Part shown: positions 1-51,654 of the stretch, piece after piece
Position numbering within the stretch: position 1 is the first letter of the stretch
Layout: each line of letters begins with the position of its first letter
DNA from: Seison nebaliae
Lineage: Eukaryota
Reading direction: 5' to 3'
NCBI GenBank assembly: GCA_023231475.1
Contig: JALJEE010002436.1
Location: 62,001 to 126,000, forward strand
Length of the DNA stretch: 64,000 nucleotides
Made by a program: the position numbers and the translations under genes
The notes under the pieces: generated by a model
What the model was told of the DNA's origin: nothing
The model's input: only the letters and a program-made list of their open reading frames with translations
Database searches by the model: none

Positions 1-993
1 TTTGATTGTCGTATGATGCATAATGTCCTTCATTCATCGGATAATTCCTTCCCATATTATTATTACGTCCTTGCATTCCCCCTCCATATGGTGGCATATT
101 TCCACCAAAACTTCTTTCATTATGTCGACCATTCTGACCGGGAGCGGCCATTTTACGGAAACGATTATATGGCATATCTTTCGGAATGGCTTTCTTCACA
201 TCCAAATCGATACTTTTAATTCGATGATGTTTTTCTAAAATAATCTTATCTACTGGATCATAATCGCTATATGTGACAAATCCAAATCCTCGAGGTTTTC
301 TCGTCTCTTTATCCGTCATCAAAACACAATCCAAAATTTCTCCATATTGATTGAAATATTGTCGAAGATCCTCCTCACTGATACCTTCCTTTATTCCTCC
401 AATGAACAATTTCTTCACTGTCATTTGTACTTCAGGTCGACCACTCTCTTCACGTGGCATAGCTCGTTTCGGTTCCACTTCTCTCCCATCGATGATATGT
501 GGACGACTCTTCATCAAAGCATCAACCATCGTTGATCGAGAATATGTGACAAATCCGAATCCTCTAGATCGTTTCGTATGACTATCCTTCATTACAACAC
601 AATCTACCAAACTTCCATATTTCTCGAAATGACTTCTCAATGTATTGTCGTCAGTGCGGAAGTTCAATCCTCCAATGAACACTTTACGAAATTGTTCTGG
701 TTCATCCTGAGAAGAAATCGATTAAAATTAATTTTAAATTTAATACAAACCATCTCTTCCGATTTCCTCAAATCATTACTATTATTATTGTTGTGGTTGG
801 GATTGGCAACGACGACTGGATGGACAACGGGATTGTCGTTCGGCATATTGCTGCCGGAAACATCTAACGAGTTGTTCATATTCGCTTCGTTCTTAACTTC
901 CATATTCGACATATTATTTCGTTCTACTGTTGGTAAGTTTGAATATTCTCCCTCGCCCTGAATATTATTATTAATATTATCTCCTGAAATCAT
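1..993 (-). CDS. hnRNP A1/A2-like (Hrp) two-RRM RNA-binding protein; 3' end lies beyond the window start
   Basis: Exon 993-751 encodes an Asn-rich N-terminus. A 44-nt GTTTGT..CAG intron (750-707) follows, then an open frame to base 1: DEPEQFRKVFIGGLNFRT..RSRGFGFVTY..HIIDGREVEPKRAMPREESGRPEVQMTVKKLFIGGIK..KPRGFGFVTYSDYDPVDKII..DVKKAIPK, followed by a G/N/R/Y-rich tail. This is the classic UP1 tandem RRM pattern. Confidence 0.92.
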
Positions 994-1848
994 CTCTTTT
1001 CAACTTATTTGCTGCGTATCTATAAATTCTTCTCCTTCTACGATCTATATATAATATATCTAATATACGATTACTCGATCTCTTCATTATTCAGAAAATA
1101 CACCTATCATCTCTCTCCCCTCTCCCACAATGTATTATTTATGTGCATTCTTCATTACATGTAGGTACACGATGATGCACCCTTCACCAAACAAACATAT
1201 CAACTTCGGTACAGTTGTACGTGGACAAAAAAAAACATTCCATCAATCCAACTTGTACATGCGAAATTTGATTGGGACAGCGGGAAAAAAGAGAAAGAAA
1301 CAATATATTTCATATGTACCTTCAATACTAATGTATGTACATTCACTTTCTACAACGAGATATTCATGCGAGATATTCAAACAAGCCCTCTCATATCTTA
1401 TCTTATTCGACGTACATGTGTTCTACATTCGCTAATTCGATCACATCGACATCTCTCTCAAACACAAATGAAAATAGGCAGACACAATCAGAAATGAGTA
1501 CAAGATATAACTAAAGTAATAGAGGACAAGAAAATGTTATTTAATGTATCGTGATGGATCGTCCAATAAACAACACGAGTATTCATGGATGAATTTCCAT
1601 TTAAAAATATTTGCAGAATGAGAAAATATAATTTTTGCTAAATAATCAAATTCAAATGTCAAGCTTCACATTGTAATTTGCATGTTATTCGAATCAATTC
1701 ATTTTATTCTCTAATAAACGTTTTTTACCTTTCTTTAAGTATAAAAAATAAAAATGAACATTTAAATTTTTGGCTTTTAATCGAAAATTCAAAAATTTTA
1801 AATTTCTCCATACACAACTTTACATAATATTCTAAAATTTTTTACGGT

Positions 1849-3008
1849 ATGGCATCGAAGAAGATTCGCAGTGAATATAATTTGAATGAATTGAATAAAA
1901 TGGCGAATGAAGTTTGAATTGATCGGATCCGTTCTCCTATAGTGGAATTTGCAGGAAGTTCAATGTTCATTTGAAGGATATGATATTACAGCTGACGATC
2001 GTCACGGAGTTCATTTACTTCTCCATCAAGTTATCCATTATTTGAATTGTGATTGAAAAAAAATTAATTTTCAGAATTTTAAATATTTAAAAGATTTCCC
2101 ATTTGAAGCAGTCACTGGATATTTGATAGAGGAAGGAAGTGCTACAGTTCTGAGGAATGAAGCGGCTGTGGGAACGTCAATTAGGTTGACTGCTCCATCC
2201 ACAACCATTTCCACCGATTCCGAAATGAACGGAAATAAAAAGATGGATGACGAAAAAGATGGCGATGATGATGATGAGGAGGAGGAAGAGGACGATACAG
2301 TTTATGCAGTGACTGGTCTCATTCCTTTACAAATTCGAACGAATTCCGTTAAATTTTAATTTTTTTATTAAAAATTTTTAAAATATCTCATTTTTTCAGT
2401 ATCGAGAAAATTTGTCTCCATTCTTTCGAGAATTAGCTGGAAATGATTCGAAGAATAAGAAATTGTTAGAGAAATTAAACGGATATTTGACACCGGAAAC
2501 TTTATTTTTAATTAATTTACGTTTCTTAAATATTCCGATGCATGTCTTTATGCCCCTCATCAATGAATTAGTGTTAGTTCTAAATTGACTAAATAAAAAA
2601 AAAAGATTAATTCTAATCTTAAAAAAAATTTATTTTAGAGAAAGTGAATATGAGAGTGAATATTTGATTTTAATGTATCGAGTATTCAAAGAATCGAATA
2701 AGAAGAAAAATTCAATAATATATATACAAGATGAATATGAATTATTTGAGAAATATTCCGTGCTCCATTTCACCACGAAACCATTCGATAACATTTCATC
2801 GAATGAGAATATGGGAATAAATATTTCGATGAAGAAAACTAACGATCTCAATAGTGACGTGACGAATAAATCAAATAATGAGAATGATACCGATTATTCT
2901 GTTCATTTAACTGTTTGTGTATTTCCTGTGAATCGTTTGAAAGATGTTTTGGACGAAATGTCGAAAATTTTAGAACGTGAAACATTTGATATAAATAAAT
3001 TAAATTAA
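1849..3008 (+). CDS. BCCIP: BCCIP/Bcp1 family protein (BRCA2- and p21-interacting; ribosome biogenesis), 5 exons
   Basis: ATG at 1849; introns 1912-1954 (or -1942), 2030-2074, 2348-2399 and 2573-2638. The spliced product has EVQCSFEGYDITADDRHGVHLLLHQ, an acidic run followed by VYAVTGLIPL, LINLRFLNIPMHVFMPLINEL and IIYIQDEYELF, which match BCCIP motifs. Confidence 0.8.
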
Positions 3009-4286
3009 TTGAGTTGCCAATAATTCTTTTAAAGTTTCTCTCTTTCGAATTAATTGAATTGAATTATCTTTTTTTATTAACAATTCACTTAAACGAAAAT
3101 GAGAATTGTAATTTGACGACATTGAATATACATATGCTCCACAATTATAAATAGCTAACATGTCATTAATTTTAGCGGAGCCATTCCATTCTTTCCGAAT
3201 CGTATCCGTTTCACATATACATCCAACGATGGAATATCTTTCAAATTCATCAACAGATGATTGACATTCAATATTGTCAATTCGATGATAAGATCCATAA
3301 AACATTGGACGAATAATATGATTGAAACCAGTATTAACTCCAATTAATCGATTATCTTCTTTCACCGTTTGGACGGTAGTGAGAAGAACAGCCGATTCAC
3401 TAATAATCCATTTTCCTGGTTCTATATGAATTTCCAAATGAGGAAAATTCGATAATTTTTTATCTATCAATTTAAATGTCTCCACCATATTCCGATAAAT
3501 CACATCGATTTCATCATTTTCATATGCCACATTAATTCCTCCACCAATATCAATAAATTCGATGGGTCGTTTTTGCATCTTTTCAATTCCATTTTTCCAT
3601 TCCATTACTTGTTGAATGACAGAATTGATGGATTTAGATGCATTAGTCAATTCGGATCCTAAATGGAAATGAATTCCACTCAAATATAAATTATTTGAAT
3701 ATTTTTCGAATAATTTCTCCAATTTTTCAAATTGGTCAAATAATATTCCGAATTTACATTGTCGATAACTCGTATGAATTTTCCTATTCGATGTAATATC
3801 ATCGAATGGGAGTGATGGATTGATTCGAATTCCAAATTTAATTTTTGAATTTTTTGAATTAATTTTATCATATTTTTTCATAATTGATTCCAATAGATTC
3901 ATATCGTCAATTATGAGAATTCCAATATCCATCGAGAAGATTTGTTCAATTTCTTCAAAATTGACACAATTCGGTGTAAATGTAATATTTTGAGAGAGAT
4001 AACCAGATAATTTAGCTATATGACATTCATTCACACTAACGGTATCGATATGATGGATTTGATATGATTTTATTAATTCTAATAATTTTATATTTGAATT
4101 AGCTTTCATGGCATATTTGATGACGAATGGATTTTTAGTGAGATATTGTGATAAAGTTCTTTGTAGAATTTTTATTCGATTCTCGATTATCTCCTCTTTA
4201 TAAACGATGAGAGGTGTCGAATAATTTTTCCCAATTGATCGTAATTGATCAAAAGAGAATTTTGTAGCGATCATCTTTTTGTCCAT
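3000..4286 (-). CDS. lysA: Diaminopimelate decarboxylase (PLP-dependent fold III), intronless, bacterial-type
   Basis: Single 428-aa ORF with YAMKAN (PLP lysine), IRINP, KFGI, HFHLGS, IDIGGG, EPGK, GFNHIIRPMFY, VGCICETD and GAYVYSMSSNYN. The RPxxY and ICE motifs favour DAP decarboxylase over ornithine decarboxylase. Confidence 0.93.
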   Translation of the reverse strand: MDKKMIATKFSFDQLRSIGKNYSTPLIVYKEEIIENRIKILQRTLSQYLTKNPFVIKYAMKANSNIKLLELIKSYQIHHIDTVSVNECHIAKLSGYLSQNITFTPNCVNFEEIEQIFSMDIGILIIDDMNLLESIMKKYDKINSKNSKIKFGIRINPSLPFDDITSNRKIHTSYRQCKFGILFDQFEKLEKLFEKYSNNLYLSGIHFHLGSELTNASKSINSVIQQVMEWKNGIEKMQKRPIEFIDIGGGINVAYENDEIDVIYRNMVETFKLIDKKLSNFPHLEIHIEPGKWIISESAVLLTTVQTVKEDNRLIGVNTGFNHIIRPMFYGSYHRIDNIECQSSVDEFERYSIVGCICETDTIRKEWNGSAKINDMLAIYNCGAYVYSMSSNYNSHFRLSELLIKKDNSIQLIRKRETLKELLATQLI

Positions 4287-4462
4287 AAGGTCATAAAACT
4301 TTTATTTATTTGTTTCGAAAAAGAAGAAGAGAATTATCAAAACATTTTCTTAGAAAAATTGAATTTTATGAATAGAAATTGAAGGAATTATTTTTTGTGT
4401 AAATAAAGAGAATCGGAAAAAAGGAGAAATTGTCGACATGGAAATTTGATGATGAACTTTGT

Positions 4463-7400
4463 TCAAGTCGAATAAATAAACTCAGGATGAGAAGATAAGT
4501 CATTTAAATTTACTCGATTCGGTTTCTTAATTTGACAGAAGAAAAGTGGATGAGGTTCGACTTTTTTTTTCGAAATATTTATCTCCTCGTCCACCAACTG
4601 CCGATGACGTTCACATCGTTCGTCATTATCTTGTTCGATGGCTTCTGGTACATTGACATACATTTGAGAATTCTCTTCACTTATCATGTCATTTAATTCC
4701 AATGAGGAGGATGATGATAATTTTCTCATACGAACTGATTTGAAATCGATATTGTCCTTCGTTCTACGATTCTTTTTCCCTTTCATTATTCCATGTTCAT
4801 TCGAACTACTTAATCGTTTCCTCTGTTTTTTCTCAGATTTTTTATTCTGTTTTGAACTTCGATAATGATGATGACGATGTTGATTATTATGGGATTGTCG
4901 ACGATGATGAGTGTGACTCAAATCTTCGTTCTCATATTGATACATTTCCGTGTTCAATAATAATTGACCTGCAATTTGTTTAATATTTTTGTTGAGTTCT
5001 GCGAATGATGGCCGATGTTCAGCGATCTTATTCCAACAACTTCGCATCAAAATATCACTGTAGAAATTATAAATATTAGGAAACAATTAAATTAATTGAT
5101 GAAATTTTTATTTAAAAAAAAAACCATAATTTTTGTTGAAATTCATCAACGATATTATCGGGAACAGTTAATCGATGACCTTGTCGGATGAATCTGACGA
5201 TATCACTGGGAGTTGTTAAATTCTCGTATGGATTACCACCATAACTCAAAATCTCCCACATCAATACTCCGAATGACCATCTATTTAAATTTTTATTATT
5301 TTATTATTTGAAAATTAATATGAAAATAGAAACACGTCTGATTTGGTTGAGTATTTAGCATATAATATACTTTCAATTGCCATCCATTTCAATGGCATTT
5401 GTCCATCATTCGAACCCATATAATAAGCACTGTTTTTAGCCAGACCAAAATCGGCTATTTTCACATGATTATGAGAATAAACTAAAATGTTCCTCGCCGC
5501 TAAATCTCGATGAATTATCTTCAAATTAATTCAAATATTTAAATAAACTAAATTGAAATAAACTTTTTTCGATGCCAAATATTCCATTCCTTTAGCAATC
5601 TGATGAATGAAATTGAACAATTGGAAAATATTCAAAGTATCATCATCAACAGCATTCTCTAAGATATCGAACGGATTTGTAGATGTCGATGTAAATGTTG
5701 TATCGACATCATCACCATTGCCACTATCTGTTAGAGATGTCGATTGTGAATTTGAAGATTTTATCACAGAGTTCTGACCTTCGTTATAAGTGGCGTAACT
5801 GTTGAATTTTTTACGAAATTGTTTTTCAGAAAAAATTTTATCTTTACGGAAAGAAATTGATTGAGAATTATTCTTGTTCGACGCATTTGATGACAGATCA
5901 TCAACGAGATGATCGAAGAACATATGTTTATCTAATTCGTTTGACTGTGATTCGACGTAATCAGAAAAATCGGTTGATATCGATTTGAAATAAAGAAATA
6001 ATTGATTTCCATATTCATTATATAATTTCATGTCATTATTTCTGGTTAGTGATGATTGTCGAGTATAAAAAACGGATCTCATCGGTTTGTGTCTTTGGAG
6101 ATATTTCTTCAAATCACCATGACGACAATACTCCACGAGAATGAAGAGTGGTTGTTCAATATTTTGAATAAAAGTACAAACGCCAAAAAGTGAGACGATA
6201 TTCTCATGTTTTCCAACATATGCTAAAAGTTGCATCTCTTGAATTAATCCTTTCAATTCTTCCGAATTCACTTCTCCACTTTTCAATTGTTCTGATGTAG
6301 TTCGAATGGAAGTATAATGATCTTTCCCATCTTCATCATTCAACATTTTTACAGCCACATGAAATTTCGATTTTTCTTCATCTTTAAATTTAATATTCGC
6401 TTTCCTCACAATACCGAAAGCACCGTTTCCTAATACTTTTCCCAAATGTATTCGCTCTCGCGGATATTCCCACATCGCTGCAAATTGAATCATTTTCGGA
6501 TATTTATTCAAAATATCAAATTTTGTATCAATTAATTGTTTGATTGATTCTTTCGAATTCTTATGAGAATTATTTTCTTCATTTTCCAATTTCATCTTTT
6601 CATAATTCTTCAAATATCTTTTCTTCAATTCATTCAATTGTTTCTGGAAATTGGCTTCTATAATATTTTGGAGCATTCCATTTTGATATGTTGTCGATTC
6701 TTTTTCATTCGGACATTCACTTCGATGATTTCCTGATTTCACTGCATCTATCGTCGAATGAAGATATGCTGTATTCTAAAAAGAATTTTAAAAATAAAAA
6801 TTGAAAAGTAATTTAAATAATACCTTTTTCATTAATGATGTTAATGAATTGGTGTGATCGATTCCATTTAAATCGAAAGAAAATGAATAATTATTCAAAT
6901 TCTTCTCAATCTCCTCGTCCGTCGGAATGATGAGAGATTCGTTCGATTTCAAATCATTCCGATCCATCATATCCAAATTCGATTTAACTAAATATTTATT
7001 GGTGAAAAATCTTTCCATTGTCGACGAGGAATTGACAGATTTATGTTTCTTCGACGATTCACCGAAACAATTATATCTTTCCAGACAATTCGTTTGTGAG
7101 TAAATGAAAACAAATATTAATAATGGAAATAAAATTACTATGGCCACGATTAATATGATTTTATATTTCAAAAATTTATATGATGCAATTACCGGTTCGA
7201 TCACATTAATCTTCCATTGCAACATACATTGACGATGGTCATTAGTGAAATGATCTGTTCTTACGATATATCGGTAAATTCCTTCGTGTTCTTTCGTCAC
7301 GTTCAGATAAACAGCTTTCAATGATGATCGTCGATTCATTTCGCTCTTCAAATCTTTTGTATCCTAAAACATTCCATAAGATTTTCAGTCGATTAATAAA

Positions 7401-9172
7401 ACGAGGGGAAATGGAGGAAATTTCATTTCAAATTCCACAAATCAAATTTTCATATTAAGACAAATAGAAATGAATCGAAATAAAAAATCATTCAACAAAA
7501 AAAACAAGAGGCGTTCACAAATCACATAAGGAGGTTAGGTTCATCGCGTTTATGGTCAAACGATGGAATCTGTAAATTTCTTACCGTCGCTTCACTTAGA
7601 AATGGATTCTCTAACTGACGTTCCCAAAGATGTTTTATAATAGAAAAAAAGTGAAAAATCATAAATTAAATGAAGTGCATTACAAAAGTAGATAAATTTA
7701 ATGATATATCTTGAATAGAAGACATGTGGTGAAAATTGCTCCATAGCTGGAAAAGTAACTTTCCCATCTTCACTGACACCATTTAAATGAAATGCAAAAA
7801 AAACGAAAATCTTCTAACAACAACAAACCTTAATCTTTTCCCAATTCTTCTTCTTCTCATCAAACATCTCCCATCTCGAATGCACCAAACATGTGCTGTA
7901 ATGGTAAATGGGAACGGTTAACATTCCACCAACTTCTACGTCATATTCAGGAATTGAATCGCAAACAAAACTATTATTTTCATAACGACATGTGGATCCT
8001 TGACAAATGACCGTATCGCAATTATCTAAAAGATTTATAATAGTAATTTAAATATTAATTTGAATTTTAATTCATACCAAACGATAACTAACAAGGTACA
8101 ACGAAAGAAATTGCCAATTCATTTGATTTTCCATAAGAATTCTCATAAATGCATGATAATTTCAAATCGTGTTTCGTGAAATATTGAGTGACTAAAGGTA
8201 TCTTATAAGTGTAATTATTTTCTCGAATCAAAAATGCTTTCTAATACACATAAAATTAATGAAAATATGAAGGAGATGATGGAACTTTTTTAAATAAATG
8301 CAGACGATTAAATTCTTTCCATGAATCGACAACTTCCACTTTTGATTTGTCTCCCACTTTCAAATAAGAATTCTTCACCGTCGAATTTCCCAGACAAACT
8401 AGAAAATGTTGTGTTTGACAATTTATCGTCATATTCTCTTTTGACAGTTCCATGTCGAAGGACAGACTAATCAGTTGTGGTGGTTTCTTTGTGATGTTAG
8501 ATAAGAAATCATAACAATCGTCGGTAGCCGGTGGATTGGCATATAAATCAGATTCATAATCAGGATTATAATCGAATTCATAAGAATTTTTAGACGAAGC
8601 GAACACTTTCTCATCAGCGATATGATAATTTTCTGCATCGCAACAAACTTCAATCTTGAAAATTACAATTAATAAATTTTTCATTAAAAATTTTAATTTA
8701 AAAAGGAAATTCAAAACTTTTCTTCTCTCGTCATTATTGTCATTATAAGTGGCAAAGTGTATAATATTAATATTAAAAAATTTCGATTGATTTCTAAAAT
8801 TTATATCACCAAAACGACATTCATATAATCCCGTTGTTTCTGGTGTGACGATCAGTTGGAGCATTGTATGTTCTTTATTGATCATTTTGAAATTCTTCAA
8901 ATTATTTTCATTTGATGAAATTAATCGATTTCGATGGAACCAATGAGTGTCCATCGTCCTACCTAATCGGTTGACTGCTAAACATTCGATTAATAATTTT
9001 TCCTTTTCAATCGACTGATATTCATGTTCGGGTATTTTCTTATAGAAGACTTTAAATGAAAAGTTAAATTTATTGGAATAAGATGGAATTAACTTTCTCT
9101 TGATTTGATGGATGTGAAGATGAAAATGAGAAATGAGAGCAATATCGGAAATTGTCCATTTGATAAGATCAT
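4463..9172 (-). CDS. FGFR-like receptor tyrosine kinase (signal peptide, Ig domains, TM, split kinase), multi-exon
   Basis: ATG at 9172 gives MILSNGQFPILLSFLIFIFTS (signal peptide). Ig motifs: IECLAV..HWF..GLYECRF and NVTKEHEGIY. TM: IILIVAIVILFPLLIFVFIY. Kinase: WEYPRERIHLGKVLGNGAFG, VAVKML, VGKHENIVSLFGVCT, HRDLAARN, DFGLA, MPLKWMAIES, SDVWSFGVLMWEI, CW..RPSF. Some ectodomain exon boundaries are uncertain. Confidence 0.88.
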
Positions 9173-12100
9173 TTTATTTAAAACTTTTCCTTTGGATCGG
9201 TAAGTTTTGAAGGAGAATATTTAAATGAAGAATCGAATGAATGATGTGCGTGTGTGTTGGTTGGTCGGTTGGTCGGTCGGTTGGTTGAGGAAGGCGAAAT
9301 AAAAAGAAGCCAGTTCTAATTATGCTCACGTATTCATGAAATAATTTAGTTTTAATTGAGAAGAAATTTGTAGGGATTGGAATAGTTGAACATATTAATG
9401 AATTCCGACTTCAATATGATTTACGTCAACTGATTGTTTAAAGGAAATTCTGATGATATTTCCCCTCAAGTTTTATCAAGAAATTTCTAATGTTATTCAA
9501 TTTTCAAATGATCTGAAGAATTGGAAGTTGGTTGGAGATATCAAGCAGAAATTTTAATTATTCCAAGATGTTTATCGAAAGCAACATTCCTGTGTATGGA
9601 ATGTTATCATTAATCTTACAATTATTATTATGTTAGCGAACTCGAAAAGGTTAATTTCCTAAATTAATGATGAATATTAAACATCATTTCCTTCCAAATC
9701 AAACCGAACGACATACCCTCACTCACTGAGAGAGACATATGCATCGAAAAAGATATGTGATTAAATGTTCGATTGAACGGAAGGATATTTGATTCGGTTA
9801 ATGACATAAGTATCGTTGAAGTGGATGATTTTTCAAAGTACGTTTGATAATTGATGGTAAACAATCGACTTATCATTCTTACATATTATCAATTTACCGT
9901 TTTACGGAGAATCAGTCTGATATATTCATCTATGTACCTTCATCTCAAGTGCTTCCATCGTCCATATACGGTCTCTTTTGACCTTCCTCCACAAGAAGAT
10001 AAAGTACCACTACGATTAGAAGTAATCAGGAGAAATGGTGATGTTTCTTAAACAAATGCATTACCGGAAATGAAAGACAATCAGGACAATTAGAATTGAC
10101 ATAGATCTCATGATGTTTGTCAGATCATCCACATTCTTTGTTTCATAGAACGACCACTTTTATGGTTAATGAATGAGAAGTTATTTGTATGTGATTAGTG
10201 GGAAAATATTGAAAAAAATGAACATTTCAATGACATGCAAAAGAAGAAATGTTTGGTAAACAACATTCTCATTTAAATATGATTCATCGGATAATTAGAA
10301 CATAATGATAAATAATCATAAGGATGGAAAGGAAAATTTTTGTTTAGCTTGAAGTATATTCTCTTTGGAAATGTCCATCAATCAACTTGAATGAAATGGA
10401 GAATATAAGATGATATCTTTGAACGATTAATTTTATTAGGGGAATCGCCAAAGATGATAAGTCGAAAATAGCCGCATTAAATAATGAACATAAGGAAAAT
10501 ATTTTTATTTACAATCTCCAAATAAACAGACGAGTTAATCCATTGTGAACTAATGCACTAATGAAGAACATAATGAGATTGGCGGAAGAAAACGAACTAT
10601 ATCATCCTTTCAATTGCAACTACTCGATGAAAGATGTTTTTTGCGGTTCTAGCGTAACTATGATGAGCTTAAGAATGATTCACTACTATCGGAGAAAAGA
10701 ATAAACAGTAGACAATTGGAGATGGATAGAGTGGAAATGATCAGGAGTTAACTATCTCATTACAATGGAAATATAATTATAAGACGTAGGATTTTATGGT
10801 TTCATTCAAAACTACACGAATAATATATCAAATTACATTTATTTGCCATAAACATTGAATTATTGTCGAGTTGGTGGACGGACGGATGGGTGGAGGAGTA
10901 CATAGAACACAACCGTTCCTACTGGTACATCAACAAATATAATAAGTAAATATTTTCAATCATACCTTCCTAACAATATTGATGTACAACGATGTTCAGT
11001 TAGCGAAAGAATCGAAGAATGACATAGGGACTGACTGGTCGAATTTGCCTTCAGTATCATCATCATCATCATTATCATCATGTCGGAGAATGATTGAAGG
11101 AATAGTGACTGTTCAACTTCCGTTACTCATTATATACATATGTTGCTATGTTGATGCTGGTGAAGATGGAAAAGGAAATTTTAATGATAATTATCAAGTC
11201 CATATACGCACGTATGCGAATACCAATTATATTGTTGAACAAATTTACTGGACTAACCGTTGCGAATGATATCGTAACAATCTTACATATCCTATATACA
11301 TTGAAAGTGGATAGTGAGTCGGCCATCAGTCAGTTACAAGACCGGAACATTATAGAATAATTAAGTTTATCATATTTCTTCTTTGATCATGTAAGCTTTG
11401 AGATGAGATTGATCTTGAATATGAGAAGATTACTGTTGTTGGGAAAAGGTGCCTACGATACAAAATCCGTTTTCTCATTCGATTCGACAAGAAAGATTAT
11501 TTTGATAATGAACAATATCTCGAACATAGGCATTCTTGTGGATGATGTGGAGATTCGATTAATTTCCATTCTGAGAAGGAATTATTAATTATGAAGAAAC
11601 TCGAATAAGTTATGAAGTAAATCCGTTTAGGAAGTTGTTCAATATTGATTGCTCCTCTAAATATCCAACACTTATTGACTTAATCATTTTATTGCGTAGG
11701 ATAATGAAGGAAATCGTTCATGTACATATGCTTCCAGATCGTCCGACTGTTAGTTACTTTTATGTCCAGGCGCATTTCCCAACTATCATCACCATCATCA
11801 TGACTGATGGTAGTATGTCTTCCTGTCTATATGTTTTTTCTCATTGAAACAATGAAACGAAAATGATATGTACGTAATTGGGAGGAGAACGGGAGGGATA
11901 TTACATAAGAAGAACGTTTTCTCATCCTTCTCCTCTTCTATTCCCTCCTAATATATTTGTCTGCTAATGCTCCTTAATCACCATCCATCAGTTTGTCTTA
12001 TCTTCAAGTTATTGGAACAAATCTAAACAACATCACTCTCAAAGCAGTATCAGAGAATGAGACTATTCTACAAATATTATTTCAATCGAACACTAAATAG

Positions 12101-18220: not shown

Positions 18221-19917
18221 ATGTCCTTCCACTTGTTACTTCTCTTCATTTATCTCATTCATTCCGTCCAATCCTCAAAACACAACGTCGAATATCAAGG
18301 TTTCTTTCATTCGTTCAAATTTTTAAATTTTAAATTTTACAAGAAATCATGAATGGTTGTCGAGTAATGGAGAATTGGCTATTTGAACTTTTACTTCCTC
18401 CAATTCCCAAAGAAATTTCTGCCTCTTTAATTCTCAAGAATTGGAATGAGAAGATTCTCCGAGAACATGAGACTGATAAGATCTTCAAATCAGAAAGTAT
18501 GAGATTAGGAAACCAGTTCAATTATCAGCAACTTCAACATCTCCATCAACAAATCAAAGACGAAAGTAATTCGATCGAGAGGAATTTGAGGAATTCTTTA
18601 AAGAAACTTTATAAAAGTCTCAAATATTTCGAACAACTCTCTCGACAAATTCTCGCACTCAACCGATATTACAAATCTAACGTTGAGAAATTATTCGAAT
18701 TGAAACATAACCAATTGACAATTTTGTCATTGTTTGTTGATAAAAATCAAAAAATCTCCACCATCCCTACCACAACCACCACACAGACATCCATTCATGA
18801 TATTCAAGAAAATTTCACAACTTTATTAAATTTCTTCTCACCTTATTCTATCGCTTCATCTTCACAACTCACTACCACATCCGTGAAACCGTTCGAATCA
18901 ATCATTAAGAAAATTTATCCATATTCTCGTTCATTCAAATCTGCCAACATCAATCAAACTTCCACATCGAAAACGGCCGAACGGAAATTTCCCCCACAAT
19001 TCAACCAATTCCAAAACATCATTCCCACATCGACGTCGGGTAAATCATATTTGGAGAATCTTCGCCTTCGACAAACTTCCACCGTTACTTCCACAACAAC
19101 AATAACGCCATGGTTCACTTCCACGACGGAAACCATGATTCCATCATCATCACCATCAACAACAATTTCTCCATCTTTGGGGAAATCATTCAAATTCTCG
19201 TCCACAAAACCATTAAAAGGTTCGATTTCGGTGGTTACTCCAACTCTCTCAACTCGAACCTTATTACGAAGTGGCGTTATACATAATAAGGATTTGATGT
19301 CGAACGTCGAATCGAAAACACCAGATGAATTGATATCTATTCTTCTTGGTCTCCAACCACCAACAACATCATCAAATCGAATTTATAAGAATGAAGACAA
19401 TTCAATGAAAACGGAAGAGAATGAAGATATTAATGACGCATTATATCAATTATCAGAGAAGACATTGACGAGGAATGAGAAAGTGATTACGAATATTAAG
19501 GAATGTCATAGTCGTGGTAGTTGCAATTTCGAACATACAGTCAAATGTGTCACAAATGAAATGTCAAAGACGAATTATATGGAGAAATCGACTACTGATG
19601 ACTACGACGTTTTCTGCATATGCGATACAGCTTATACTGGATTATATTGTGAAAGTTAGTGATTTTTACCTTGTATGAAATTCGTATCTTCCATTTTCCT
19701 AATGATGTTACATGAGAACGAAATTGATGAATTTGTTTATTTTCCTTTTCCTCTAGTCAAATCGCCTTGTTTGTTGACGAATAACACTCATCTATATCCT
19801 CATCCAAACGATGATTCATTATTCATCAAATGTTTCGGAGGACTCAGTTACCTGTTCCCATGTCCTCAACCGATGGTCTACAATGCATATTTGAAACGAT
19901 GTGTAATTGAACGATAA
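18221..19917 (+). CDS. Secreted protein: signal peptide, helical region, Thr/Ser-rich mucin-like stalk, EGF domain, C-terminal chitin-binding type-2 (peritrophin-A/CBM14)-like domain
   Basis: ATG at 18221 (MSFHLLLLFIYLIHSVQS); introns 18300-18343 and 19655-19756 preserve the frame. EGF-like region CHSRGSC..C..CICDTAYTGLYCE, then PC..LYPHPNDDSLFIKCFGGLSYLFPCPQPMVYNAYLKRC. Confidence 0.75.
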
Positions 19918-21126
19918 GAATTTCTTTGAGAATTATAATATATTTCATCATTATGATTTCTCTAAAAATTACACATATTATTGTTACTGATAAATTAATA
20001 AAATTATGCGATTGTTGCCCTTCAATGTCATTCATGGTCGTTTTGCCTTCGAAACTTCTGTTTAATGGAAGGTAAGACGATACGTTTACCATTTACTCTC
20101 AATGATTTAATTCACCAGTTTCTTCCCACACACTATTCAAATTGAATGAAAATAATTTTAAGGAACAATATTCCCACCAGGTGAAAAATGGCAATTATTT
20201 TAGTGCAATCATTTACATCCAGATTTGTATTAATAATTAGACATCACCATTAACTATATACATATAAATGAAGAACGTTGAATTGTATTCTTTCCATTCT
20301 CAGACAAATGTTATGGAAAGAATTTATGATGACATCATTCACAAGTTGACATGTTAAGGAAATTTTTTATAGAAGGGAAACGAGTTTGAGTTTTATGATT
20401 TGATTTGTTAAATCAAAATAAACTTACATCAATGTCTCACCTTGTAATGGAGAAATATGTTATTAATGGTGGGTCACTAACTCTCCACATAATTCATTAT
20501 TTCCATTTTAATTCCACACTTGTGCATGGGAAATATAAATGATTAATTCCCAATCTTGCAGTGATAATTTGAGAGAATTTACATTTTAATTCAAAAGTTT
20601 TTTTATAACGTTCAATAATTTCTCGCGATTATTTTAAGAGCAAAGGATATATTTGTAATTAATGAAAATTCTATTGGAATTGAAACCAATTCGATTCAAC
20701 ATATTTTTTCCTCAATAAACACGTAATCGGTTAACCTTGTCACTGAGAGTTATGTGAGAGAAGGACAAAGGACAATTGCTTATACATTGCTTGACTGAGG
20801 CAGCATTGCAGTTACGTCTCGTAGCAACACAATTTTTATTTACTTAAAAAATTGTAGAATACCATTCTAGACGAATATGTAGGAGCATTCTCTAACAATT
20901 TCTTCCTTTTTCAAGATTTTATTCGTTGAAACTTTATTCTATTCACAAATGGAAGATAAATATAGCTGAAACTGCTCAATCTAATGAAGGATTTTTTTCA
21001 TTTCAATTATTTCGGTTCAATTTATCCATTTATTTAAAACAATTTAAAAGTGTAAAGAAAATAAGTAGTTTGTAAATAATAATTATCCAAATCTCAATAT
21101 TTCGCAACTCGACCAATTCTTTTAAA

Positions 21127-24100
21127 ATGAATTGGAAAAAACTGAAAAACTCTTCGACCGTTTTCTTCATGTTGTTGTGGTTGGAAGTTCTCATTGTCAG
21201 ACGACGTCCTCTCACAATCATTTTTGAAGTGATCGTCATACTCTTATCTCCAATCATATTCATAACGGCACGAGCGATATATGTCGTAAAATATTCGACT
21301 GATCTCGAATATGGCCATTTTAATGATATGCTTCCACCATTCCCTTTAGTCAAAACGCAAGCATTCGTAATCGCATATTATCCACACAATCAATTCACTC
21401 ACGCCATAATGAATTCTTTCGATGTGAAATTGAGTTTCTGTACCGTCAATATACCACATACGGTGGTACATCGCAGTTCGTTTTTTATATCGATATCGAA
21501 AAATTTTAAAATTAAATTAGATTTTACTTCTCAAGAAGAAATGGTTGAGTGGTTGAAAAATAATACTGATTTCATGACGCAAAAAGACCAAGTGATTGGT
21601 GTGACATTCCCTGACATCTCACCAGAAAGTGGTGAGGAATTCAATGCATCGATTAAATTGCAATTTGCGTATCAGAAATTATCGGATTTTAATGAAGCTT
21701 ATGTTCCCGGTGGTTCGACGGAAGGTCGATTTAATATCGACCGATTATATGAGGCGAAACCTCCTTTAGGACCTCGAGTTTTTCGCAATTTAGCCGACGG
21801 TTTTATTCCAGGTTTCAAATTTCCTTCTATTCAAATATAATTGAGGTAAATCTGGAAAAAAACATTAGGTTATGTACGTCATTTTTGGATAACTGTACAA
21901 AGTTTATTGATGAGAGTGATATATATGCACATGTCGGATGATCGAATACCGGCCGAATTTAAAACACATCATTTCTGCTTAATGGGCCCGGCATTACAAT
22001 TAGCGAAATTTCCTCATCCAAAATATCGGAATGACAAAGCTCTTCATATAATTTATGTGTTTCTTACTCTCATCATCACAATCAGTTACTTCGTATTTAC
22101 AACATATTTCACTCGTCTCCTCATTTCCATCCGTTATAAATATGCATTCATCTTATTGAAAATTCCACTCTGGAAATTATGGACGGTGAAATTTATTCGT
22201 GCATTTATCGTCCTAACATTACATAATGGTCTACTATGTTTAGTGTTAGTGATGAGAATCAGTACTCCGGTAGAAAAGATGGTAACAAATCGTACAATGC
22301 CAAATTATCAAGTTTATCATGAACAACGTCAAAATGAACAAATTATAAAATATAGTTCGATTATTTACTTCTTCTTCGCACTCCAATTATATGCCACGTC
22401 ATATTTATTATTCGTTATATTAATCGCTTCATACTTCAAACAATCCGTCATCGGTGCCATGGTCTGTAGTTTGCTTCATTTTCTCATTTATCTACCCAAT
22501 CTAGCTACATCAAACAATTATAATTCTTATGTGACGACTATTATTTTGGAGATTTTCAGTTACGGAGCAGCTCTCGGAGATTTGGGGAAATTATATGCGA
22601 TTTGTGAATCGAATGCTTCGAAATTGACATCGGACGGTAAATATTATTTCTATTTACCCACAGTCAGAATAATATATGTTTGCCAATTGACGAATATATT
22701 TGTAATTTTACTTCTAATAATTCTATCGAATATTACACGAATTAGAAGGATGATTGAACAAAATAAGATATTTCCAATGAGTAATATCGAGAAAGCGATG
22801 AAAGTGTCGAATTTGAATAAAATTTATAAAGTAAATGGATGTTCAAATCATGCATTGAAAGATGTTTCTTTCACCGTCAACGATTTATCATTAAATGCTC
22901 TTCTCGGTCACAACGGTGCCGGTAAGAGTACTCTCTTAAGGATATTAGCGGGAGAATTCCCTCAAGACTCAGGAGAAATTCAATACTGTCAATACCGATC
23001 GACCGTTTTATGTCCCCAACAGAATTGTATAATTTCTTATTTAACATTGGAAGAACAACTTCAATTCTGTGCGAAAATTAGATTGAAAGATCTGGATTGG
23101 AAAATGTCGGAAACAAAAATAAGTGAAATTATTACAAGTTATTCATTATCTAAATTTCTACATAAAAGAACTGGAAAATTATCGGGTGGAAATCAGCGAC
23201 GATTAACTTTGGCTTGTACTGTCATCGGTAACGAAAATTTATTGTTATTAGACGAACCGATGGCGGGAATGGATGTTAATGGAAGGAAAATTGTATGGGC
23301 CGCGTTAAAAGCGGAAAGTAAACATCGAATTGTTATCATGTCCACACATTATATAGTGGAAGCTCAGAAATATGCAGATCAGGCCATCTTCATGTACGAA
23401 GGCTCCACCAACTGGATCAAATCATTTGAAAGAAATAATTCTACTAATCGTCAAAAAATTATTATTAGTAAAAAAACCGAAAGTCTCCCAAATAATCAGC
23501 TTTCCATCTCGAAAAGAAGATCGCGAATTGATGGGGCCCTATCGAATTCCACCATCTCAAAAAGTGAATCAGTTTTAACGGATTTTACTCCTTTCGAATC
23601 GTCGATGTATATTCCAAGTACGGAAACTTCTGGTTTGTCACCGGAAAATTTGGAATTGAACACGACCAAAATTGAAGAAATTTTCGTTAAAAAAGATAAA
23701 AATCGTTTCGATTTAACTGAAATTACAAATGTCATTCAAGAGAACAATCCCAGATGGTTAACACTCAATGATGAGACGTTAGAAGATGAATATGTCGCTC
23801 GATTCTTATCCGATAATTCTTCAGAAAGATCATTTCAAATAGAACAAATTTTAGAGAAAGAAATAGTTTATAATGAAACGAAAGATATTTATTCCATTTT
23901 ATTTCTAAAACAATTCAGATATTTGAAACAAAGAAAACTAATGCAAATCATCATTACCGCATTCTCTCTCGGTGTTATTATGATTGCTTCCATCTATTTC
24001 GTCATCGGATCTCAAAAAGAGGAGAAACTTGAAAGAAGATTCTCTTTCGACGATTATGAGAATAATATCATAATTTATTTTGAAAATTATCTAATCGACG

Positions 24101-26484
24101 AACGATTTGATGATCAGTTCATTGAAATTCTTTTCGACAATTTACAAACTCAAAAAACACATTTTGTCAAAATCGTTCAAAATGGAACGTTACATATTTA
24201 TGATATTGAATTGAACGAATTTGTTAAGTTCGATAAAAACAAATTTCAAGTGAGTAAAGAAAACGATTTTTGGATAGATAAATTTTCAACAATTGAAAAA
24301 TGCAGCGGTAGAAAAGAATCATTCGAACAAGATACTGAACCGTCACCGAAATTCTTTTGGTGTTTAGGCACCGAAGATTATTTATTATTCAAACGAATTA
24401 TTCGAACAGTTGTCACTGTCAAGAACTTCTCACCCAGATATCAAAGAGTGATGGTTTATTTTAATGGTGATTCGTTCCATTCATTACCTCTAGTGAGTCA
24501 GTTTGCTTTGCAAACTTTCTTTTTGGGCTATCGGAAAAGTGTCGATTTAAATTTTACAGGTGTCGTCAAAATCGAATTGATCAATGAACCGATATCTCAT
24601 AATCAGAAAGTGAAATTGAATGAAGATCGTTTATCAGAATTCGTCGTTATTTTATTGATTTCATTAAGTGTCCTACTTTTCCATGCGAATATTGGTTGGG
24701 AAGTTGTAATGGATTTTCCTTCTCGTCATTATCAATTGATGAAAGGTGTTGGTCGAATCCAATATTGGATGACGGTTTTTATATTTAATATTTCCTTATG
24801 TATTGTCTTCGATTTTTGTGTCATCATTATTCTCCTGATAATAACCAGACAACAATTACTACCGGTGAATAGTCAATGGTTGGCGTTATTCGTCACACTT
24901 ATTCTTTTTAGCTTAACAATTATACTCAATTCATATTTCTTGGCATTTCTTATAAGGAACTTAAGTGTATTTTTCGTCGTGAAATTCGCCTATAATGTCT
25001 TATCAGGAATCATCCCATTAATCATGATTTATGTCTTCCAATTAACGAACGAAGTGAAAGAAGATCAAATTGATCGAGTTCTCCGCTTCATATTTCCTGC
25101 ATATGCTCTCTCCAAAGGCATTCTGTCTATAACGGAAAATTATTTTTATTCGAAAATTTGCGAAAATACGAGAGATTGTGGAATTGGACAAAATCCATGT
25201 TGTCCAAGTTAATATTCTCCTCATATTTCCCCGTTAGCTTATAAATGATTTTTAGATGATTGTGGAAAACGTTGTTTCCATTTTACTTCCAATTACTTCG
25301 CCATCAATAACTATAATGGAGTGGGATTATCTCTCATATGTTTCATTATTCATTCCATAATTTATGTTTTCGTTATTTGCATCTTCGAGTTTCTCGCTTA
25401 TCGGAAGAATATTTGGAGAAATGCCATCTATCACAGACAATTAGGAAGGAGTAAATTATTCCTACAAAATTGTAACCATCAATTCTTTAAGATGAATGAT
25501 AAAGGAGAATTGTTGAATTTGAAATTCTTCCTCAATTGTTGCGAATTAGTCGTTGGTGCGAATGGAGCAGGCAAATCGACATTACTCAAAATACTTTATG
25601 GTAAATTGAAACTTAATCCAGGAACGTTAAAATTAATTAATTTAATAGTCGTTTGATTTTTATAATACTTTGAATTTTTGTATTGAGTAAAATAATATTT
25701 TCTGATCAGGATAAATCAGATGTCGGTTATTGTTCGCAGGAGGATGAAGCAATGTTTGGAGAAGAAATGACGGGTTATGAATGTCTTGAGATTTATGCGA
25801 AACTTCATCGCATTAAACATTTTCAACAACATATTCAGGACATTGGCAGATTAATCCATTTAACGAGAGCACTTCGTCGTCCAATTCTGACTTATAGCGG
25901 GGGAATGAAACGACGTTTGTCATTAGCCATTTCACTTATCTCATTTCCCACTATACTCTTATTGGATGAACCGACATCTGGTGTTGATCCTGTGATACGT
26001 CGAGATATCTGGTCGTTTCTCGCTATTTATAAGAAACGTCGAGTTATTATAATGACGTCTCATTGGTTTCTTTCTTTATCAACTATTTCTTTTTCTATTA
26101 TCTAATTTTTGTAGCAAAGACGAAATGGAAATATTGGCAGATCATGTACAGAATTTTGGTGAACATTATAAACGTTTATCGATGAAACAAGAAAGGATTA
26201 ATAATCTGGTTGAGGTGCAACATAAATTGGAACCGGAATCCGATGATCATTTAAAGATTCACGAATTTTGGACGCAATTAAGTAAGAAAGAATTTTTCGG
26301 TACACCGCAGAAATGTACGGATTTGAATTTCTTATGTGTTAATCTCGAAATTCATCGGTCTCGACTCGTCAGTTTATTGAATGAATTGAAGAAGATTGAA
26401 GGATCTATCAATAAAATTGAAATTAGATTCAATGAAGTTTCTATGATCGAAGCTCAAGATGACATCCCTGAAAGTTTATCTTAA
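21127..26484 (+). CDS. ABCA-subfamily full-length ABC transporter, paralog 1 (6 exons)
   Basis: N-terminal FMLLWLEVLIVRRRP..FE plus a TM helix and two TMDs. NBD1: GHNGAGKST, LSGGNQRRL, LLLLDEP, STH. NBD2: GANGAGKST, GYCSQ, YSGGMKRRL, LLLDEPTSGVDP, MTSH. Short introns near 21477, 21812, 25208, 25626 and 26066. Confidence 0.9.
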
Positions 26485-27272
26485 AGAAAATTATAATTTA
26501 TTTTCTACACAATCCGTTCTAATTATTAACACAAAAACAAATAAACGTCAATGAAAGATAAACCATATTAGTTTTCCAACAAATGCTTTCCAGTACTCAA
26601 TTATCGATAATAATCAGTAGAAAAATCTATTAAAATTCTTTGTAATTAGTTGTAAATTGTTATTCATTTTTTTAGTTGTCTTAAAATATCTTCCTTGGCA
26701 ATTTTTCACGGACCTAAAGAAAGTATCATTGAATTCTTACTACAGTTTACTTACTTTTTGAAATTTCAGATAAATTCCTCTTAAGAAATCGGTGGAGATA
26801 TATCGGAAAAACTTCTACTACAATCATTAGACACGGGAATAATAGAGGAGATCGACCCTGACATCGTAAGTCATAATAGCATCTTAAAATATCATATATG
26901 TATCATTTGCAATGATAGTTCGTTATGTTAAGCTTAGTTTGTTTGCCTCGGAGTTAAATGAAAATAATGGAAAATAATTTGAAATTTATTTCATTTAAAC
27001 CAAAAATTGTTTGTTATAAATAGATCTAATTTTTCATTTCAATTTGCGCTAAAATCTTTTTAATCGATTTATTATTTTCAATTTCGTATTTTTTGGTAAT
27101 TTTTTTAAGTTTTCAAACTCAGTTCCCAAGTGAACCTAAACGGCAATACTCGGGACATTGGCATTAGCCAAATATTATTTCACCATTATAGTTAGGAGGT
27201 TTTATGAGAATATGTGAATGATTATGTATTCGTTTAGTTTATTCTTAGTTCGAATAAAGTTTTTCGTAGAAG

Positions 27273-49007: not shown

Positions 49008-50091
49008 ACAAACCGTCCTCTTAAAATAACTGACATACAAATCATTTCTCTCGTCATCATTTAAAACAAATCATTTTCTTTCCACTTCATCAACTTCCAC
49101 TTATTTCACAGCTATATCGTTCGATAATTTCAACTAAAATTCACTTCCATTTACCAAAATTGTAATGAATAAATGTTAGAAGAAAATTATGAAATTAATT
49201 AATCAGTGGAAGGATTGGAATATGAAATTTCATTCGTCCGAAAACAACTCAAATTAGGAACATATGGAAATTGAAACAAATCAAATTGAACTTGCCTAAC
49301 ATGTAAATAAGAAGATCTCACGTTGAAGGTCGTCGGTAATTTCATGTTCGTCAACTATTAGGACAGAGTGACATAATAAAATAACTAACGACAATATAAT
49401 TCTTTTCATAATTCTTAAAACAAATTAAAATTTCCCTTCTTTTATTCCAAGTAATGTATTCTCTCAATATATTCTCCAAATGAGGAAGAGTAAAAATTAA
49501 TTTATGAATTTTAACTGTCACTCTTCGGTTACCCTCAAATTATTATTTGGATGTTATCATTTTAAAATTCATCTAAACTTCTTCTAGTCAGTTTTCTTTA
49601 TTAACTAATTGCTTATTAAGTAATTTTTGGTATTAACAAGAAGATAAATTATTTTTCTGATAATTTTAACGAAAATTTTTCGTTATCGCCGAATTGTTTG
49701 TCGTAATTAGAGTGATCGCTAATTTGTCGTTATAATTTTTAATTTTTTTACAATTTGTCATTAGCGTCAAAACAATTTCAATGAAAACTAAATTATATTT
49801 AATTTATTCTGACAAGTTAAATTTTCCAGAAATTTACATAGAAAATAGTAAAATATTCTTCCTAGTTTGTTTACCATTTCTTCTTTTCTACTGTCGCTTC
49901 TTTCTGATCAGCACCGTTTTCTAAGATGCTTTTATTTTTTTTATCAGTCTTTAAAATTTTGTTTAATTTTCATCATATATATTTATAGTTGAACTCCCTT
50001 GAAATTTCAAAGGGACAAATTTTCGACAATTATTTCGAGTAAATTAAATTAAGAACTGTTTTAATTTTAAGATTGATATTTTCCTAATTCG

Positions 50092-51654
50092 ATGCACAAA
50101 ACGGAATTGAACATTCGACTAAAATCGAGCAAGTCAGTAACATTTGCTACTCCGACAGTCCAATATTTCGATGAAGTCGAATCACTCGCTTCCAATAATG
50201 AATGGAAGAAATCATTGTTTGGCTTATTCTCATGGAATATGAACATCGTACCAGATTCATATTTAGAATATGCAGGAAAATACATATACGCTATTGGTTG
50301 TGGTAAATCGTTGAGAATAAAAGAGGATGTTCTTTTTAATAACGAAAGAATTAAAGAGAAATTTGTACGTCGATTATATCGATCAGAAAAATGGTTGAAG
50401 AAACAAATGTGTCATGGAAAGAGTAATTGGTCAGACACAAGCTTGGTGTTAAAGATTCTAATAAATTGGTCAAAAGTTCCTGAATTTGATAAATATGAAA
50501 AAGAAAATATTTTATTAGATAATATCGATAAGATTTTCAATGAGAATTGTCAGACTTGTTTGAAAGAGATATCGGTGGAGGATTTATTCTGTTATTCCAT
50601 GAAATCTTCCATAATCAATTATCAGTTTTATGGAGATAAATATCAGAATTTCTTCGAATATTTATTTATTTCAGTGAAAAATTATTTCTTGAAAATTTAT
50701 TGCCAAAATGAAATTGATGGAATTAAAATGGGTTTAACGGATGACGAATATTTGAGATTAATCAATTCCTGTGAGAACATTCTTCTCACCATTTCCAACT
50801 ATTTCATTGACAATAATATTTTCGAATTCGGGAAAGATGATGAGAAGAAATGTTTAACTATACTCTCCGTTTATCATCAATTATTCCATCACAATCTACT
50901 GTTATGTTTCATTTATAATCTCCATATTTTCGCCATAAAGAAACAGATAAATTTTGAGAATTATTTATCATACAATAAAGATTCATCGAACACTTCGCCT
51001 TTATTATTCAAAAAAATGTTATGGAAGTTCCAACGATATTTATTAATCGATCAATATTCGTTGGAAAAAGATGATGGGAAATTTTTATCTATTTTTCAGT
51101 CACTAATCTCCATGTTCCAATGCATAACATTCGATCAAGAAGAAATAGAAATTCGTTTGAAATCAAATTTGACCCTAAATAAATCACAATCAATAAATAA
51201 CTTGACTTTCCATGAAAAGTTGGCGATATCAAATAAATCATCGACTCATGAAGAGGAAAAGGAAATGAAAGATGATTCCGGATATTTCTTTTCCATTGAC
51301 AATATGCAAGACAACTGTACGAAACTTGATGTAATCGAAAATCGATTCTATTCACACTCTAATTCGAAAGAGACTGATTTAAAGAGGAATATGGAGAAAT
51401 TTCGATTTTGTAATTCTTCCATTTTAATTTTGAAAGATTCTTTTTTCTCATGTCAATGGATTAATGAGAAATCATCTATCAATATCCATATCATCGATAT
51501 GGTCGGTAGTGAATTGATAAAATTGGATGATTTGAAAAATGAACAATTTTTAAATTGTCTCAAAATGCAAGTTAATTTTTTATTATTTTTTTATTACCGA
51601 TGTTGATGATTTGTTCAGATAAATTTGGGATACGATATCTGCGAACGATTAGTG
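50092..51654 (+). CDS. Uncharacterised protein, 5' exons (gene continues downstream)
   Basis: 493-codon exon 50092-51570, intron 51571-51618, then a 36-nt exon 51619-51654 ending at a GTAAGT donor in phase 0. No domain recognised. Confidence 0.6.

Follow-up and report, generated by a model that had tools for sequence, protein, structure and literature searches.

An apparently undescribed LysA-type diaminopimelate decarboxylase gene, most likely of bacterial origin, in the chromosome of the rotifer Seison nebaliae

That animals need lysine in their diet is textbook knowledge, and the locus described here raises the question of how a gene of the diaminopimelate decarboxylase (LysA) type came to stand among animal genes and what it might do there. 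Lysine synthesis is reported to have been lost in animals generally (PMC6040629, PMC3287585), and an octocoral host is described as having no diaminopimelate decarboxylase (PMC5976621). The gene lies in a 64-kb stretch of DNA (the window, meaning all 64,000 nucleotides analysed) from Seison nebaliae, a seisonid rotifer found on crustaceans of the genus Nebalia and reported to be strictly sexual and marine (PMC3919803). Seison is described as a commensal, with hemolymph as a possible food that varies between species (PMC8351084). The gene content of the window is that of an animal, including troponin, a receptor tyrosine kinase, an aspartyl protease, ABC transporters and DHX15. The features needed for the argument are as follows.

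1849 to 3008, plus strand: BCCIP, 321 aa, with exons 1849-1911, 1943-2029, 2075-2347, 2400-2572 and 2639-3008
3000 to 3008: 9 nt shared by the coding ends of BCCIP and lysA, which meet tail to tail, as read from the sequence
4286 to 3000, minus strand: coding sequence of the LysA-type diaminopimelate decarboxylase, a single intronless open frame, 428 aa followed by TAA
4287 to 4462, minus strand: pyrimidine-rich spacer of 176 nt separating the kinase stop from the start codon of lysA, with AATAAA 24 nt before the ATG
4463 to 9173, minus strand: FGFR/PDGFR-class receptor tyrosine kinase, spliced, with an Ig-like part, a membrane segment and a split kinase; its 5′ end lies outside the mapped part
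32786 to 34918, minus strand: DHX15, a host marker 100% identical to NCBI Seison nebaliae SNEBB_002371

It is evident that lysA is flanked by spliced animal genes, as the initial annotation had claimed. On the left, the five-exon BCCIP model is free of internal stops, its four GT-AG introns measuring 31-66 nt, and the Pfam BCCIP family (PF13862) matches two of the four exons scanned, colinearly, each match singly falling below the cut-off. On the right, the best solved-structure match of the spliced kinase is FGFR2 (79.8 bits), with KIT close behind (76.1 bits). Because the coding ends of BCCIP and lysA overlap by 9 nt, the 3′ UTR of each gene runs antisense through the coding sequence of the other. 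The nearest AATAAA and ATTAAA past lysA are at 2674 and 2634, and none is found past BCCIP within 3009-3500. The promoter of lysA may lie inside the kinase gene, or trans-splicing, a process that occurs in bdelloids, may release lysA from a joint transcript. The repeats around lysA are short and AT-rich, and no mobile-element ends were seen among them.

Physical linkage of lysA to host genes is found in contigs, in a second haplotype and in the overlap with BCCIP. Unbroken contigs cross both lysA junctions in the runs X1 (1-12000, on a 21,250-nt contig), X2 (1-8568) and X3 (1863-6273), with 0 differences and flat depth in all three runs containing the stretch that were aligned over 1-12000; the source of the window itself may be among these runs. 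X1 is probably a DNA run, run X6 gave no match there, and no RNA run was listed among those with the stretch. A minor haplotype, at a depth of 3-5 versus 14-28 for the main one, shows the same adjacency. In this haplotype, a 917-nt X3 contig contains the BCCIP exon (2700-3025, with 44 differences in 326 nt) followed by colinear lysA matches at 3196-3224 and 3385-3539. Third codon positions account for 28 of the 33 BCCIP exon differences among those listed. A 910-nt contig from run X5 has the same BCCIP-lysA order up to 3224, with 29 nt on the lysA side only. The parts of lysA skipped between the minor-haplotype matches are of equal length in both haplotypes. The lysA indels amount to a net gain of 9 nt, in frame, and fall in a loop where the bacterial proteins are five residues longer; in one four-codon stretch every codon differs and LTTV is still encoded. 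The minor haplotype fits the two strongly diverged lineages reported for S. nebaliae (PMC8351084). Since this second, diverged haplotype has both the BCCIP-lysA adjacency and the frame, lysA predates the haplotype split and has kept its frame. These short, low-depth contigs support selection on lysA, its magnitude aside. We conclude that lysA is integrated in the animal chromosome and is present in two diverged haplotypes.

The codon use of lysA is also host-like. The initial annotation had described the gene as being as AT-rich as its neighbours; it is slightly more AT-rich than they are. Its GC content is 28.7%, and its GC3s of 0.196 lies below that of all 11 host coding stretches compared, which range from 0.243 to 0.332 and are open frames that may include a little intron. 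The codon-use distance of lysA to the pooled host genes is 0.66, inside the range of the host genes themselves (0.55-1.19), and its distance to the nearest of 82 bacterial subfamily genes is 0.98. Because codon use is fully adapted to the host, lysA is probably old, in agreement with the compositionally adapted transfer that had been proposed.

We then considered what the gene encodes. The product matches Pfam PF02784 (E 1.8e-30) and PF00278 (E 2.7e-13), both above the cut-offs. Pfam, the structural model and the fold search agree on a PLP barrel at the N-terminus and a sheet domain at the C-terminus, as in group IV PLP decarboxylases. Among NCBIfam families, lysA (TIGR01048) is the best for the Seison protein at 279.9 bits and leads the next family by 124 bits; the aspartokinase-LysA fusion model scores 156, DokD 110, the arginine decarboxylase speA 48-50 and the carboxynorspermidine decarboxylase nspC 44 bits. 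Bacterial subfamily members reach 366-389 bits on TIGR01048, and the Seison protein misses the cut-off of 297.9. Since TIGR01048 is the best family but the score is below its cut-off, the protein is filed as LysA-type, without certified equivalog status. Compared by sequence with solved structures, it is closest to Thermotoga LysA (146 bits), followed by DokD (56 bits) and ornithine decarboxylase (29 bits). The AlphaFold model has a mean pLDDT of 80.2, and a fold search with it returns LysA structures at ranks 1-5 and a D-ornithine/D-lysine decarboxylase at rank 6. On these family scores, solved-structure scores and fold matches the protein is LysA-type and not the animal ornithine decarboxylase. 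No signal peptide or membrane segment was predicted by a hydropathy check, and the enzyme is predicted to be a cytosolic PLP-dependent homodimer.

The description of the gene as an intronless 428-aa diaminopimelate decarboxylase holds for the frame and the family. The lack of introns, on the other hand, is weak evidence of horizontal transfer here, because open frames of 700-1100 codons also occur in host genes of the window. The product, searched from two starts, is absent from a collection of 15 billion proteins, though the Seison DHX15 is present there. Because neither an exact nor a near-identical form was found in that collection at 235-749 aa or 750-2140 aa, the gene seems to be unannotated and missing from the public protein set. 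A fused form was likewise not found among 43 longer matches, all of them aspartokinase-LysA proteins, although this is weak evidence.

All six motifs quoted by the initial annotation occur in the Seison protein, but its statement that all motifs are intact holds in part. Of the 97 near-invariant columns, defined as those in which 23 or more of 24 bacterial relatives agree, 69 are kept and 28 differ, several of the latter in the active-site loop. The changed positions include Ser173, Tyr174 and Cys177 of this loop, as well as His396 and Leu399. Catalytic positions, placed by alignment to solved LysA, agree with the bacterial consensus at K61, H208, G248/G250, E289-K292, R326, Y330, C358-E359 and Y385. 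We take Lys61 to hold PLP and His208, the Gly248-Gly250 loop and Glu289-Pro-Gly-Lys292 to bind the cofactor, whereas Arg326, Tyr330, Glu359 and Tyr385 presumably hold the substrate, with Cys358 as the acid. The substrate specificity of the enzyme may nevertheless be altered, since 28 of the 97 near-invariant columns differ, including those in the active-site loop.

The closest relatives of the protein are bacterial. A homologue search scored 7,998 word-sharing candidates, and the best 120 listed are 33-39% identical to Seison LysA; eight of these carry a taxon name, all Bacteroidota, so that no named eukaryote is among them. The signature EPGK is found in 118 of these 120 and ICE[TI]D in 112, both versus 0 of 39 other LysA proteins. 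These counts confirm that the motifs picked out from the sequence are true marks of a Bacteroidota-type LysA subfamily. A tree of 55 rows (LG+C20+F+G4), hand-chosen from the 120 homologues and 156 loci, with no ornithine decarboxylase and no eukaryotic LysA, those of whitefly and mealybug included, places Seison LysA, on a branch of length 2.09 and with an unusual composition, inside a 35-row clade of Bacteroidota-type and Uabimicrobium sequences (support 100/99). Within this clade it is sister to 32 Bacteroidota-type rows with weak support (85/46). Trees of 79, 261 and 160 rows recover the same Bacteroidota-type/Uabimicrobium clade. When Seison LysA was regrafted on 105 branches of a fixed backbone under LG+F+G4, a simpler model than that of the tree, 19 placements were unrejected, all of them on the stem of the clade or inside it. 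The placement of best likelihood is on the stem, as sister to the whole subfamily, and nesting beside P0002/P0003/P0010 has p = 0.37. The next branch out (p = 0.03), the E. coli type (p = 0.006) and the alphaproteobacterial type (p = 1e-7) were rejected. The proposed origin in Bacteroidota is therefore borne out as an affinity to Bacteroidota-type LysA but not as nesting inside Bacteroidota, the protein standing at the base of the subfamily. Signature motifs and clade support agree on membership in the Bacteroidota/Uabimicrobium subfamily. The donor subfamily is well supported; the donor phylum is not.

Candidatus Uabimicrobium, a planctomycete, has the same LysA type and scores 227.6 bits versus 232.7 for the best Bacteroidota genome. 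In samples with less bias than the GTDB scan below, scores of at least 178 bits were found in 19 of 81 Bacteroidota genomes sampled (the rest reaching at most 153) and in 3 of 41 Planctomycetota genomes sampled. Among plasmid matches listed (40 of 96), a Bacteroidota record leads at 197 bits, followed by 169. In a GTDB scan of 4 of 64 parts, 76 of 80 loci were titled Bacteroidota, a count that is not independent because the patterns came from a Bacteroidota-rich alignment. Close relatives of Seison LysA were not found among 5 pattern matches in viral contigs or 107 in metagenomes. None of the 80 loci from a metagenome profile scan is sister to it, the best (L158) being Algoriphagus-like, and atlas searches returned generic bacterial clusters only. 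We further noticed that Uabimicrobium and one more Planctomycetota genome (L014, L126) have LysA of the Bacteroidota type, which most of the 41 sampled genomes do not; the Planctomycetota copies are perhaps the result of transfer between bacteria. Records titled Bosea, Janthinobacterium and Neisseria (L058 (G004), L028 and L043) also have this type. The Bosea title is probably wrong, because the genome so titled drew the same phylum sample as Algoriphagus. Pieces of a subfamily lysA are also present in two IMG/VR contigs (L238:2992-4149 and L239:2-328).

Seison LysA shares its two-domain fold and length with the Bacteroidota-type enzymes (EC 4.1.1.20, TIGR01048) of Cytophagales, Flavobacteriales, Chitinophagales and Candidatus Uabimicrobium, together with the EPGK, ICETD, NHxIRP and TPN signatures and the predicted catalytic residues. 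It differs from them in being 34-40% identical, on a long branch and with an altered active-site loop, and in standing on an animal chromosome with host codon use and no dap neighbours. By score, plant, diatom and fusion-type LysA proteins are more distant: plant LysA reaches 105 bits, diatom LysA 71 and aspartokinase-LysA fusions at most 137, versus 212-245 for the bacterial subfamily, although scores from these searches are only roughly comparable as their E-value scales differ. Choanoflagellate LysA is reported to be of the fusion type (10.1101/2020.06.28.176636).

Eukaryotes that have acquired lysA by transfer, some of them animals, are already known, namely whiteflies, mealybugs, trypanosomatids and ciliates. 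The whitefly Bemisia tabaci and the mealybug Planococcus citri also have a bacterial lysA fixed in an animal genome, and the whitefly copy is reported to be intronless, to group with Isosphaera and to complement a bacteriocyte symbiont (PMC4607527), whereas the Seison gene belongs to another bacterial subfamily and to a marine epizoic rotifer. Trypanosomatids are reported to have the last one or two genes of the diaminopimelate (DAP) pathway only, and DAP replaces lysine in Crithidia (PMC3846528). Ciliates are described as having a transferred lysA plus peptidoglycan-degrading enzymes (PMC13198582). Seison may resemble the trypanosomatids, whose lysA stands alone or with dapF, and the anaerobic ciliates in having the terminal enzyme without the steps before it, but these are protists, and the trypanosomatid copies are reported to group with Actinobacteria (PMC3846528). 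In rotifers and acanthocephalans, 1-6% of genes are reported as candidate foreign genes (PMC7310846). A bacterial gene of the same pathway is known from bdelloids, members of the same phylum, three Rotaria species being reported to have a foreign DAP epimerase; none of the nine "diaminopimel" rows in the foreign-gene list is a decarboxylase (PMC4632278). Seison differs from bdelloids in being strictly sexual and marine (PMC3919803).

By analogy with these cases, the likeliest role of the gene is salvage of lysine from bacterial DAP. Such salvage is plausible because of the trypanosomatid precedent, and it fits the ciliates that have lysA together with wall-degrading enzymes. DAP would come from the walls of bacteria eaten or carried by Seison, and host hydrolases would free it from Gram-negative peptidoglycan. 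The predicted enzyme would turn meso-diaminopimelate into L-lysine, so that a single LysA would complete lysine formation and the rest of the DAP pathway would be unneeded. To the whole reading, an intact lysA-type gene acquired anciently from a bacterium with LysA of the Bacteroidota/Uabimicrobium subfamily, fixed in the Seison chromosome and yielding lysine from wall-derived meso-DAP, we assign a probability of about 0.58.

Other explanations differ in what they ask of the locus. An assembly chimera, a contaminant or a dead remnant is very improbable. The runs that contain the stretch may share DNA with the window's source, and the exact protein is absent from the 15-billion collection in which the species' DHX15 is present. 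These points are set against unbroken contigs with flat depth over both junctions in three of three runs, the 9-nt overlap with BCCIP, host-like codons, a closest bacterial match of only 40% identity, and a diverged haplotype with the same adjacency and frame. It is rather unlikely that the gene came by another way than directly from a bacterium to Seison, by inheritance of an ancient eukaryotic or animal LysA that most animals have lost, as a gene shared with other rotifers, or through a protist. None of the top 120 homologues groups with Seison LysA, none is named as bdelloid, monogonont or acanthocephalan although proteins of these animals are in the collection, and plant, diatom and fusion-type LysA score far below the subfamily. 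An older origin would nevertheless suit a protein with no firm nesting inside Bacteroidota, whose best placement is sister to the whole subfamily, and the tree held no animal or protist LysA, the homologue list being the best 120 of 7,998 word-sharing candidates. LysA-like annotations presumably exist in Trichoplax and other marine invertebrates. The eukaryotic copies placed in the literature fall elsewhere, those of trypanosomatids, Dictyostelium and Capsaspora being reported with Actinobacteria (PMC3846528) and that of the whitefly with Isosphaera (PMC4607527).

Two further explanations accept the transfer and concern the role. The enzyme's substrate could have drifted, for instance towards other DAP stereoisomers or D-lysine/D-ornithine, with a role in catabolism or disposal of wall-derived amino acids. 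The altered loop, the score below the TIGR01048 cut-off and the D-ornithine/D-lysine decarboxylase ranked sixth by fold are consistent with such drift, as is a transferred diatom LysA reported to take other DAP isomers (10.1101/2020.10.01.322594). We regard it as improbable, given that Arg326, Tyr330, Cys358, Glu359 and Tyr385 on the substrate side follow the bacterial consensus and that DokD scores 110 versus 280 bits for lysA in NCBIfam and 56 versus 146 among solved structures. The main rival, unlikely in our judgement, is that the same working enzyme ends a synthesis begun by a resident symbiont or by other transferred dap genes. In Bemisia tabaci, the two steps that Portiera lacks are reported to be supplied by the host's dapF and lysA, both of bacterial origin (PMC4607527), bdelloid relatives carry a foreign dapF (PMC4632278), and the pooled S. 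nebaliae assembly is reported to have held much bacterial sequence (PMC8351084). Neither of the points on the other side is strong: no Seison symbiont was found in the accessible literature on Seison, and there is no second dap gene in the 64-kb window.

Salvage of lysine from wall-derived DAP remains the reading we prefer. A broader form of it is tentative, namely that a free-feeding animal without a bacteriocyte symbiont partly escapes its need for lysine through the wall DAP of eaten bacteria, by a gene from a donor group unseen in the insect cases, and that, with the bdelloid DAP epimerase, rotifers more widely may have a way of making lysine from peptidoglycan. We found no report of lysA in Seison in the literature, where unseen supplements or subscription papers could hold one. 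The string "diaminopimel" is absent from PMC8351084 (text and 2 supplements), PMC12256650 (text), PMC7310846 (text and 9 supplements) and PMC3499245 (text and searchable supplements, file 1 excepted). The Seison lysA therefore appears to be a real, integrated and apparently undescribed case, most likely of bacterial origin, with a predicted function. Among animals, the published exceptions that we found are insects that feed on sap and complete the pathway of a symbiont. If the Seison gene works, these exceptions would extend to a sexual marine rotifer adjoining the parasitic acanthocephalans, and it would offer a one-enzyme, easily assayed test of the bacterial cell wall as a lysine source for an animal. 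The gene also shows that transfer among rotifers extends to the seisonids, a group for which no survey was found in the literature.

A few other features of the window were noticed. The shortest BCCIP intron in the gene model (1912-1942, GT-AG) is 31 nt long, and the other three are of 45-66 nt. Long open frames on the plus strand at 50077-51606, 18334-19659 and 53792-55747, with sizes of 509, 441, 230 and 420 aa, have no Pfam family above the cut-off and no NCBIfam match, the frame at 50077-51606 showing a weak TetR_C_39 match only. Two tandem ABC-A-like transporter genes occupy 21076-32697 and have very long exons, with open frames of 1120 and 1113 codons.
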